This document shows positions 19,896-21,953 of a DNA stretch of 64,000 bases, in pieces. A model generated the notes under the pieces. That model did no database searches. It was not told where the DNA came from and saw only the letters and a program-made list of their open reading frames with translations. How positions within the stretch are numbered: position 1 is the stretch's first letter; every line of letters begins with the position of its first letter. The stretch lies in assembly GCA_030603385.1 (NCBI GenBank), contig JAUVXW010000015.1, positions 1-64,000 on the forward strand, given 5' to 3'. This DNA comes from Promethearchaeota archaeon. GTDB lineage: Archaea > Asgardarchaeota > Lokiarchaeia > Sigyniarchaeales > SOKP01. A program made the translations under genes and the position numbers.

Positions 19896-21953
19896 ATTTT
19901 AAGACAAGTATTAATCTATAAAGACTCCAATCTCATTTACAAAAGGACATACGGTATAACTATAGACTTTGAAGTTTTTAAAAATCTAATAAGTGGTATG
20001 TTTTCAAAAGTGGTTGAACAAATTTATCATATAGATTATGAAAATTATAGAATTTCTTTTGTTATAGAGAAAGATTTTAGAATTCTATTTTTATTTGTTC
20101 ATGACAAAAAAGATGATTTTATCCTTATAAAAAAAGAATTAACTAACTGTAAAGAAAAATTTTTGAAATCGTTTAAAAACATTTTAGACCAAAAAATTGA
20201 CCCAAGCAGTTTAAACAAATTTAGCGTAATGGTTGATTCAATTCAAAATAAATTACCAGCGATACTATCTCTTGTAGGTTATGATGGAGTTGGTAAAACT
20301 ACTATTACAAATCTAATTAGATCAAAAGAAATCCCCATAAAACCAGCTCTACAAATCACTGGAAATATTGCAACATTAAAAATTGGAAGCTTAAATTTCA
20401 TATTAAGGGATTTTACTGGGGAACAAGATGTTGGTTTCTTATGGAACAATTTCATAAGAGGGAGTGATCTTATCCTACTTGTTACAAATTCTACTCTGGA
20501 TAATGTAGAAAACAGCAGGTTTTTCGTAAAAAAGATAGAAGAAGAAATACCAAATGCCCTTGTTATTGTATTAGGAAATAAACAAGATCTTGAAGATACT
20601 TTAAAACCACAAGAAATTGAGGATATATTAGAATTAAAAACACATGGATTAATCGCAATAGATACAGTAAATCGAGATAAGCTAATCGAAATTATAATGA
20701 ATACCATGCAAACCCAAGATATCACCACCCCATTGTTAAGTATGTCTAATGAAAGAGAAATTCTAATAAAGGAATTGGACAATGCAATACTTCAGACCGA
20801 CTTTGAAAAGGCGGAAATCCTTTATAAAAAAATTATAAGGATTTGTCTAGATCTTGGAGATAATCCTCTAAATATGGAATTTTATAAGAGTTATCAAGGA
20901 ATTCAGGATAAGTTAAAAGCTATTGGACCTAAACAAGAATTAGCAGAACCTCTAACAACAACACAAGATCACCAACTAAAGAGCATTAGTTCATTGGAAG
21001 GTCGTTTAAAAACATTATTGATTAATTATATTAAAAGTCTTGAAGGAATTTTAACAGTAATCATTAGTGATAGAGAGGGTTTTGTTATAACTTCGGAAAG
21101 TAGACAGGATGCCGGGGATGAATCTCTATTGGGAGCAATAGCAGTTATGATGGATAGCTATATAGAACGAATTAAAAGAGAATTTGGGAACGAAACTACT
21201 TTTTTTAATATAACTACAATCAAAGAAAAGAAATTCACCTACGGTTCAATGGGAACGAGATCAATTTTATTAACAGTTTCCGATTTATCAACCAACGACA
21301 CAGAATTACGTGTTTATACTGAATACGTAGCGGAAAAGGTAGAATCATTGTTAAAAGGAAATGATAATGTTATACTTGAGATTCCCGAAATTATTAGATT
21401 ATTATCTAAAACTAAAAGTGGTATCTTACCAACGGGGGATTATCCATTTAAACTAATTTTAACTGGTGATTTTGCAGTGGGAAAAACCTCTTTAATTTCA
21501 AGATTTGTGCAGAATCTCTTTAAAGAAGATTATCATTCCACAGTAGGAGTAGATATTTCTAAGAAAATCGTAAAACTCGACGAAAATACAAAAGTTCAAT
21601 TCATTATATGGGACATCGGTGGTCAAATGCCTAAAATGGCACCCTATAGAAAAAAGTTTTATATGGGGGCAAATTGTGCTTTCATTGTATTAGACAGAAC
21701 CAGAGCAGATAGTCTTAAAAATGTCGATAAGTGGTATAATGAAATCAAAAATTATGTCAAAAAAGAAATCAATGTCATTTTAGTTGGAAACAAGTCAGAT
21801 TTATTAGATAAAATATTAGTTAGTGAAGAAGACATAAGAGATGTGGCAAATAAGTATAGATTTAACTATATAATTACTTCTGCTAAAACTGGTGAGAGTG
21901 TTAATGAGACGTTTTTATATATTGCTTATAAATTTTTAGCATCTTTGTTTTAA
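19896..21953 (+). CDS. Double small-GTPase fusion: longin-like + Arf-like GTPase + helical linker + roadblock + Rab-like GTPase (probable ATT start at 19896; first ATG at 19998)
   Basis: GTPase 1: GYDGVGKTT, RDFTGEQ, LWNNF, GNKQD. Roadblock: LEGILTVIISDREGFVITS. GTPase 2: GDFAVGKTS, WDIGGQ, NKSD, TSAK. Upstream frame reads LRQVLIYKDSNLIYKRTYG. Confidence 0.88.
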   Translation: MLRQVLIYKDSNLIYKRTYGITIDFEVFKNLISGMFSKVVEQIYHIDYENYRISFVIEKDFRILFLFVHDKKDDFILIKKELTNCKEKFLKSFKNILDQKIDPSSLNKFSVMVDSIQNKLPAILSLVGYDGVGKTTITNLIRSKEIPIKPALQITGNIATLKIGSLNFILRDFTGEQDVGFLWNNFIRGSDLILLVTNSTLDNVENSRFFVKKIEEEIPNALVIVLGNKQDLEDTLKPQEIEDILELKTHGLIAIDTVNRDKLIEIIMNTMQTQDITTPLLSMSNEREILIKELDNAILQTDFEKAEILYKKIIRICLDLGDNPLNMEFYKSYQGIQDKLKAIGPKQELAEPLTTTQDHQLKSISSLEGRLKTLLINYIKSLEGILTVIISDREGFVITSESRQDAGDESLLGAIAVMMDSYIERIKREFGNETTFFNITTIKEKKFTYGSMGTRSILLTVSDLSTNDTELRVYTEYVAEKVESLLKGNDNVILEIPEIIRLLSKTKSGILPTGDYPFKLILTGDFAVGKTSLISRFVQNLFKEDYHSTVGVDISKKIVKLDENTKVQFIIWDIGGQMPKMAPYRKKFYMGANCAFIVLDRTRADSLKNVDKWYNEIKNYVKKEINVILVGNKSDLLDKILVSEEDIRDVANKYRFNYIITSAKTGESVNETFLYIAYKFLASLF

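Follow-up and report, generated by a model that had tools for sequence, protein, structure and literature searches.

The gene at positions 19896–21953 of the forward strand of a 64,000-nucleotide stretch of DNA from a Promethearchaeota archaeon of the Lokiarchaeia (contig JAUVXW010000015.1, positions 1 to 64,000; hereafter the window) encodes two different small GTPases in a single polypeptide. The product is a genuine, conserved four-module small-GTPase protein and no assembly artefact; a longin-like domain, an Arf-like GTPase, a roadblock-like domain and a Rab-like GTPase follow one another (longin, GTPase, roadblock, GTPase; LGRG). The gene stands back to back with that of a giant surface protein, the cytoplasmic tail of which has a predicted fold resembling NPRL2/NPRL3. 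The joint best explanation of these findings, to which we give a probability of roughly 55%, is a receptor-tethered pair of unequal GTPases. This explanation is favoured over a sequential cascade within the chain and over a single-chain, Rag-like pseudo-dimer.

The frame of the fusion gene is open from 19890 to the stop codon at 21951–21953 (+), and initiation at 19896 gives a protein of 685 amino acids (P0001). Both P-loops reported in the initial annotation, which had been made from the sequence alone, lie in this one uninterrupted frame (GYDGVGKTT, residues 128–136; GDFAVGKTS, residues 524–532). A length-restricted search recovered more than 120 protein clusters of 650–690 amino acids, with full-length identities of 45–97%, that stem from independent NCBI, JGI, ENA and Logan assemblies. 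A search of 400 Asgard genomes, scored on the two best candidates per genome, gave full-length, stop-free matches in about 30 species genomes, closed ones included. An error of assembly or gene calling that joined two adjacent genes, for which the unusual length alone would speak, is vanishingly improbable and was rejected, the same uninterrupted frame being present in these clusters and genomes.

Among the 400 genomes, full-length matches were confined to one Lokiarchaeia family (f1), where roughly half of the window's genus (53 genomes) had one, as had a few genomes from two further genera. With this query, no fusion turned up in f3, the sister family, or beyond; the closed genomes of f3 (4.4 and 6.0 Mb) had roadblock-GTPase matches only. 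Stand-alone roadblock-GTPases were far more widespread than the fusion. The genome to which the window belongs (3.89 Mb, 94% complete, 7% contaminated) has one fusion gene among 59 small-GTPase matches. A variant lacking the longin domain was seen in another genus, with the order GTPase-helical-roadblock-GTPase in an open frame of 580 amino acids (positions 2978–4717 of L057, G170:C9).

The domain order proposed at the outset, longin-Arf-like-helical-roadblock-Rab-like, was backed within the frame of 685 codons by Pfam matches to the G domains and by the topologies of an AlphaFold2 (AF2) model. Pfam Arf (PF00025) matched residues 125–268 (E 4.9e-25, 88.4 bits against a gathering cut-off of 22.3) and Pfam Ras (PF00071) residues 519–679 (E 1.2e-45), with sub-threshold matches to Robl_LC7 and MAPKK1_Int at residues 371–436. 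The model was built on 60 family members and has a mean predicted local distance difference test score (pLDDT) of 81.3 and a predicted template modelling score (pTM) of 0.50. It begins with a longin-like domain (residues 1–118; 19896–20249, on the + strand as are all parts of the gene), assigned by AF2 topology and superposition on ESM Atlas models. An Arf-like G domain 1 (residues 121–272, 122–271 in the model; 20256–20711) follows, assigned by Pfam Arf, PDB and structure matches, and then a region of three helices (residues 274–342; 20715–20921; model helices 274–299, 303–320 and 328–342) that stand-alone longin-GTPase paralogs also carry after their G domain. The fusion junction is marked by a linker (about residues 343–357; 20922–20966) within a disordered region, residues 343–364, of pLDDT below 50. 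Beyond it lie a roadblock-like domain (residues 358–487; 20967–21356; AF2 topology and weak Pfam matches), a connector (residues 488–513; 21357–21434) and a Rab-like G domain 2 (residues 514–685 and the stop codon, 514–683 in the model; 21435–21953; Pfam Ras and Rab structure matches). Mean pairwise identity among 60 family members is 38% in the longin domain, 52% in G domain 1, 36% in the helices, 17% in the linker, 65% in the roadblock domain, 73% in the connector and 66% in G domain 2. That the connector is the best-conserved segment of the protein suggests a functional contact site.

Longin and roadblock domains were recognized by the topology definitions of Tran et al. (2024; PMC10933270, Fig. 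7 legend), under which a longin has no N-terminal helix and two C-terminal helices. In the predicted structure, residues 2–118 match the longin topology strand-strand-helix-strand-strand-strand-helix-helix, with strands at 2–9 and 12–20, a helix at 25–35, strands at 44–48, 51–58 and 63–70, and helices at 75–96 and 103–118. Residues 1–273 superpose on ESM Atlas models of archaeal longin-GTPases with a template modelling (TM) score by match of 0.80 and a root-mean-square deviation (rmsd) of 2.9 over 255 amino acids, which suggests that the longin domain and G domain 1 form one compact unit, as in archaeal longin-GTPases. Fold searches with the whole 685-amino-acid model were taken up by G-domain matches, and were uninformative for the longin, helical and roadblock parts. 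The residues L-R-Q at positions 2–4 are nearly invariant in the longin-GTPase family, stand-alone paralogs (L004, L005 and L006) included; of 28 sequences of this family, 90% or more keep L2, and the same holds for R3.

The first G domain resembles Arf proteins. The closest PDB sequences were Arf1, Arf3, Arf6 and Arl (E 2e-13 to 1e-8), and VIA-align gave Arf6 (Z 16.7), Arl10B (Z 16.0) and Sar1 (Z 15.6). By sequence motif, its P-loop lies at 20277–20300 (+) and a deviant G3, DFTGEQ, at 20409–20426 (+). The canonical Arf G3, WDxGGQ with its catalytic Gln, is absent, and Arg171 and Glu176 are found instead. Deviance had initially been claimed for both G3 and G5; it stands for G3 (RDFTGEQ, residues 171–177), and G5 departs more mildly from the norm than claimed, with Ala254 kept in 54 of 60 family members. 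In the same 60 proteins, over which all motif counts for this domain were taken, the catalytic position 176 is Asp in 24, Gln in 18, Glu in seven (as in the window) and Pro in seven, and the position of the Arf-type Trp, 171, is Arg in 43 and Trp in 10. The rest of G3 is better kept (D172 in 52/60, G175 in 55/60). In the P-loop, G128 and G133 are invariant (60/60), K134 is kept in 59/60 and T135 in 55/60; the switch-I position is Ser or Thr in 53/60, and in G4 the counts are 60/60 for N228, 55/60 for K229 and 51/60 for D231. Stand-alone longin-GTPase paralogs read WDFAGQ in G3.

Judged from sequence, this conservation is the pattern of a domain that may still bind guanine nucleotide and lack a catalytic residue of its own. 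Impaired intrinsic hydrolysis, as proposed in the initial annotation, is a reasonable inference that fits the loss of Gln in most members. Because both the Arf-type Trp and the catalytic Gln have been lost, G domain 1 is probably slow or dependent on a GTPase-activating protein (GAP), and would be mostly GTP-bound. That it has gone further and become a dead pseudo-GTPase scaffold, with nucleotide binding lost, seems very unlikely. The deviant G3 and the lower conservation of the N-terminal half (52% in G domain 1 versus 66% in G domain 2) would agree with such a scaffold, and it is contradicted by the invariance of G128, G133 and N228 and by the high counts for K134, K229, D231 and the switch-I Ser/Thr. 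No N-terminal amphipathic helix or myristoylation site of Arf type was found; the place in front of the G domain is taken by a longin-like domain of 118 residues.

The second G domain was described from the outset as canonical, and it is: WDIGGQ, NKSD and SAK are present, and WDxGGQ, NKxD and SAK are invariant in the family. The sequence motif of its P-loop lies at 21465–21488 (+). Foldseek matched the domain to Rab1, Rab8, Rab11 and Rab5 with TM scores by target of 0.83–0.87, and VIA-align matched it to Rab3C (Z 22.2, rmsd 2.1, 162 amino acids aligned). The C-terminal Cys prenylation motif of Rabs is absent, the protein ending in ASLF with a tail that has no Cys. Upstream of it, residues 358–486 form helix-strand-strand-helix-strand-strand-strand-helix in the AF2 model of the roadblock-like domain. 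The Pfam match of this domain is weak (PF03259, 12.2 bits against a cut-off of 23); a paralog encoded at 12366–13337 of the window has a Robl_LC7 match of E 7.7e-5 (22.8 bits).

Divergently from the fusion gene, across a spacer of 210 bp, the window encodes a surface protein of 2,090 amino acids (13413–19685, - strand; sequence and synteny). The N terminus of this giant protein carries a signal anchor. Near the C terminus stands a single hydrophobic helix, after which come Lys/Arg-rich sequence and a cytoplasmic tail of 376 residues. All 10 ortholog loci in which this could be tested encode the N terminus of the giant protein upstream of the fusion gene, in divergent orientation. The longin-less variant of another genus is likewise divergently paired with a giant surface-protein gene, and in one genome (G213) the fusion and giant genes have been duplicated as a unit. 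As the back-to-back arrangement is always kept, the gene pair may be a membrane-receptor signalling module.

The tail (13416–14543, -) was modelled with a pLDDT of 79; a longin domain leads, and a pair of winged helices and then C-terminal helices follow. Its top Foldseek matches were NPRL2/NPRL3 and Npr2/3 chains of GATOR1/SEA (E 6e-5 to 1e-3, 260–450 columns), followed by Fuzzy-Inturned, Mon1-Ccz1, DENND10, FLCN and C9orf72-SMCR8. VIA-align placed the GATOR1 chain 8fw5_B first (Z 11.8, rmsd 2.7, 120 amino acids), within 1 Z of other longins. The tail model has the domain order of NPRL2/NPRL3, an N-terminal longin and then winged-helix domains. In an alignment of eight sequences, W18, Y30, P31, H48, E53 and G72 of the tail longin are invariant.

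In a complex prediction, the N-terminal half of LGRG (residues 1–345) and the tail reached an interaction score (ipSAE) of 0.43, and the best of three controls 0.00. At least 87% of contacts were shared between docking runs, and the pLDDT of the partner was at least 81. Of 80 solved complexes 58 attained the pass mark for ipSAE, as did two of 110 mismatched pairs; passes at or below 0.60 comprised just seven of the 80 solved complexes, yet both of the passing mismatches. The predicted complex thus gives weak support to docking of the N-terminal half on the tail. It raises the odds a little, because the gene pairing had made docking likely beforehand, and proves nothing.

These findings are consistent with the following mechanism. 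A longin-Arf-like-helical GTPase would have been fused ahead of a roadblock-Rab-like GTPase in one Lokiarchaeia family-level lineage. After the fusion, G domain 1 would have kept guanine-nucleotide binding and lost the Arf-type Trp and the catalytic Gln, leaving a slow or GAP-dependent, mostly GTP-bound domain next to a canonical switch in G domain 2. We infer that LGRG, which carries no lipid anchor, would reach the membrane by docking of its longin-GTPase half on the NPRL2/3-like tail of the giant protein, and that docking would keep the roadblock-Rab switch at a membrane receptor. The signalling logic would then be nearer to that of the Rag pair with GATOR1, or of Miro, than to a sequential Arf-to-Rab cascade. 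A receptor-coupled GATOR1/Rag-like module, in which the surface protein's NPRL2/3-like tail both binds and regulates the single-chain pair of unequal GTPases, is a possible reading that we hold tentatively. If it is true that receptor and GTPase pair act together in this way, they would represent an early form, in a prokaryote, of the transmembrane signalling that reaches small GTPases by way of longin/roadblock platforms.

Several results weigh against the receptor-tethered pair. The alignment of the tail longin contains no conserved arginine finger of GAP type, and since no Arg is conserved at that position no catalytic role can be assigned to the domain. A weak docking pass belongs to a class that is more often wrong than right when there is no good prior. 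In the fusion itself, Gln is kept at position 176 in 18 of the 60 members, so that loss of hydrolysis would not be universal in the family, and the pTM of 0.50 leaves the relative placement of the two halves undefined in the AF2 model. The longin assignment of residues 1–118 comes from predicted topology alone: a 28-sequence profile of these residues had no significant match in the PDB, and its comparison by hhalign with the longin domain of the receptor tail was non-significant.

The proposal that the fusion arose from longin-Arf-like and roadblock-Rab-like modules was sustained, both modules also occurring as separate genes in the same genome. Stand-alone longin-GTPase-helical genes of this genome (344–451 amino acids) are 37–40% identical to the fusion over residues 2–343, and its stand-alone roadblock-GTPase genes are 55–62% identical to it. 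A search of the full library with the N-terminal half returned 1,014 relatives, the closest representatives of which are single-GTPase proteins of 345–750 amino acids that read WDFAGQ and have varied C-terminal extensions with no Pfam domains. The fusion thus appears as one offshoot of a larger longin-GTPase-helical family. The suggestion that relatives might carry the halves as adjacent genes found no example in an unsystematic search; in a genome that has no fusion (G150, L056), the gene of the closest longin-GTPase is not followed by a roadblock-GTPase gene.

As had been noted, the roadblock-Rab half closely resembles the 12366 protein, with 62% identity over 321 amino acids (fusion residues 363–683). 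The 12366 gene (12366–13337, +) is probably a second copy of the fusion that has lost its longin-GTPase half by in-frame deletion, as judged from identity, tree, start context and position. In a tree of C-terminal halves, fusions and 12366-type genes form a clade (Shimodaira–Hasegawa-like approximate likelihood-ratio support 97) that is sister to the roadblock-GTPases typified by the gene at 10121, and within this clade the 12366-type genes branch from among the C-terminal halves of fusions. The alternative, a fusion clade that excludes them, was not firmly rejected by an approximately unbiased (AU) test (p 0.06). The 12366-type genes share the start context of the fusion (AGGTGA-N6-ATT-TTA, 12345–12375; L034 and L035), and the 10121-type genes start with ATG. 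In the genome with the duplicated gene pair (G213), a second full fusion paralog occupies the 12366-type position, convergent to the giant gene. Because the AU test is borderline, an origin by deletion stands mainly on start context and gene position.

The persistence of this roadblock-Rab half alone at the same locus, after apparent deletion of the longin-GTPase half, bears on the cascade proposed in the initial annotation. In such a cascade, activation would pass along the chain from a GTP-locked Arf-like domain to the Rab-like domain, the roadblock domain serving as a built-in platform for exchange or activation. Two different G domains in one chain, the upstream one devoid of the catalytic Gln, fit such hard wiring, as does the use of roadblock and longin folds as platforms in guanine nucleotide exchange factors and GAPs (MglB, Ragulator, Mon1-Ccz1; Tran et al., 2024; PMC10933270). 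However, the linker between the halves shows little conservation (17% mean identity) and was modelled with low confidence (pLDDT below 50), the C-terminal half persists, and apparently works, without its supposed activator, and stand-alone roadblock-GTPases occur far more widely than the fusion does. We therefore regard the cascade as unlikely.

A Gtr1/RagA-family GTPase gene (L004, 552–1460; Pfam E 7e-23) lies 38 bp upstream of a longin-GTPase-helical paralog (1498–2547) on the same strand. The pair looks like a two-GTPase operon, so that longin-GTPases may also pair with a second GTPase from a separate gene. This apparent operon would suit a single-chain pseudo-heterodimer of Rag type, in which the longin and roadblock domains pair and the G domains lie side by side, one locking the other as in RagA/RagC. 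It would also agree with the presence in LGRG of a longin- or roadblock-type domain for each G domain, and with the degeneracy of one of the two. Against it, the AF2 model combines a mean pLDDT of 81 with a pTM of 0.50, which suggests no confident packing of the halves, and the roadblock domain follows the G domain in Rag GTPases but precedes it here. Such a pseudo-heterodimer is accordingly doubtful, and the receptor-tethered pair remains the favoured explanation.

LGRG lacks defining features of each family that it recalls: those of Arf (G3, N-terminal helix), Rab (prenylation), Rag (domain order) and Miro (EF hands, anchor). Its nearest known likenesses are the Asgard longin-GTPase and roadblock-GTPase fusions of Prometheoarchaeum MK-D1, which have the architectures LG, LGR, RG and GR (Tran et al., 2024; PMC10933270). 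They use the same building blocks, their longin-linked GTPases are Arf/Rag-like and their post-roadblock GTPases Rab-like, and they too have no lipid anchor. The MK-D1 catalogue differs in containing single-GTPase architectures only, with no LGRG label in its supplement (PMC10933270), whereas LGRG has two G domains per chain, the first with a degenerate G3.

The Rag heterodimer with GATOR1 (NPRL2/NPRL3) can be likened to LGRG in that two unequal GTPases are joined via roadblock-type domains, the partner combines longin and winged-helix domains, and anchoring to the membrane is provided by other proteins. Unlike the two-chain Rag system, LGRG is a single chain, its roadblock domain comes before the G domain, and its GTPases are Arf-like and Rab-like rather than of the Rag family. 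The Rag/Gtr domain order was not found, and the match to PF04670 (33 bits) is far weaker than the Ras match on the same residues. The NPRL-like module differs from that of GATOR1 in being the tail of a giant surface protein and in having no conserved arginine finger. Miro, the mitochondrial Rho GTPase, also has two different small-GTPase domains in one polypeptide, one of them atypical, but carries EF hands between them and a C-terminal membrane anchor. A Pfam search of LGRG gave no EF-hand family, its C terminus is not hydrophobic, and there is no evidence of common descent with Miro. In MglA/MglB of Myxococcus, a roadblock regulator is likewise combined with, and precedes, a Ras-like GTPase; MglB is a protein in its own right and a dimeric GAP, whereas the roadblock domain of LGRG is fused to its GTPase. 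The SRX domain of SR-alpha, which has a longin fold, pairs with the Arf-like GTPase SR-beta, but these are separate chains that serve protein targeting to the endoplasmic reticulum.

The fusion gene has an unusual start codon. An ATT at 19896–19898 (+; AUU initiation) is aligned with Met1 of orthologs, and a Shine-Dalgarno-like GGTGA (19885–19889, +), which contains an in-frame TGA, lies 6 nt before it. After the in-frame stop at 19887–19889, the first of the codons ATG, GTG or TTG to appear is an ATG at 19998. The window's ATT-TTA-AGA-CAA aligns exactly with the M-L-R-Q-V start of ATG-initiated orthologs (for example, L011), and the aligned codon in 13 distinct orthologs is ATT in 11, ATA in one and ATG in one. 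Apart from the window's own gene, six distinct orthologs have the arrangement GGTGA-N6-ATT. Were translation to begin at the ATG at 19998, the longin domain of the AF2 model would lose its two leading strands and the greater part of its first helix. A conserved AUU initiation codon is also known across species from bacterial infC (IF3), which differs in being another gene in another domain of life, known for autoregulation. Because the start is ATT, gene callers cut into the longin domain, and P0002–P0008 have been called at 651 amino acids. Public annotations thus truncate the longin domain in most members, and domain censuses would tend to misread the family.

The architecture is common in databases, as the initial annotation had allowed that it might be; its further supposition, that it might already have been described, was not upheld by the literature searched. 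Separate longin-GTPase and roadblock-GTPase fusions are known. No paper was found describing a two-GTPase longin/roadblock architecture or containing both 'Asgard' and 'two GTPase domains', and searches for tandem or double GTPases gave nothing relevant. The ArfR preprint mentions extra domains but not the two-GTPase architecture. Database records name the fusion 'GTP-binding protein' or 'ADP-ribosylation factor-like protein'.

Small GTPases regulated by longin and roadblock domains organize the membranes of eukaryotes, and their Asgard homologs are used to reconstruct the origin of this system. The interest of the family comes mainly from its pairing with a receptor, which provides concrete, testable candidate partners in close relatives of eukaryotes. 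Matching Asgard GTPases to their partners has been difficult, because their genes seldom share an operon with those of regulators (Tran et al., 2024; PMC10933270). Here a natural pairing is offered, in which fused GTPases, one of them degenerate, stand back to back with a membrane protein whose tail is NPRL2/3-like.

The locus as a whole is conserved. A roadblock-GTPase gene (10121), the gene of the P0122 protein, a 12366-type gene (in some genomes only) and the giant surface-protein gene are followed by the fusion gene, divergent from the giant gene, then by genes for a 262-amino-acid protein and a DNA methylase. This order is kept in four further species at 60–88% protein identity. The first gene (10121–11104, +) encodes an older roadblock-Rab-like paralog with an ATG start and is a conserved member of the locus, as judged by Pfam, synteny and its position as sister clade. 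Next to it lies the gene of a conserved protein of 286 amino acids from its first ATG at 11271 (11271–12131, +; the open frame from 11253, P0122, gives 292). This protein, restricted to Asgard archaea, is the product of the most conserved gene of the locus, with 83–88% identity in four species; it belongs to no Pfam family, and all its neighbours in the ESM Atlas are hypothetical proteins of archaea. Downstream of the fusion gene, a charged, coiled-coil-like protein of 262 amino acids (22117–22905, -) is kept in seven of 11 ortholog loci and has no Pfam match.

Paralogs of the receptor tail also occur as separate genes. On another contig (C10; L054, G000:C10:138000–156567, genes at 4295–5410, 5411–9286, 9882–10916, 11000–12109 and 12109–16521), a stand-alone longin-GTPase paralog is paired as the fusion is, with a surface protein and a separate tail gene. 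Two tail paralogs are encoded there by separate genes of 369–371 amino acids that abut surface-protein genes or overlap them by 1 nt; one of the surface-protein genes is divergent from the longin-GTPase gene and the other convergent with it. Within the window, a stand-alone receptor-tail paralog of 375 amino acids is encoded at 61829–62956, with 30% identity over its whole length.

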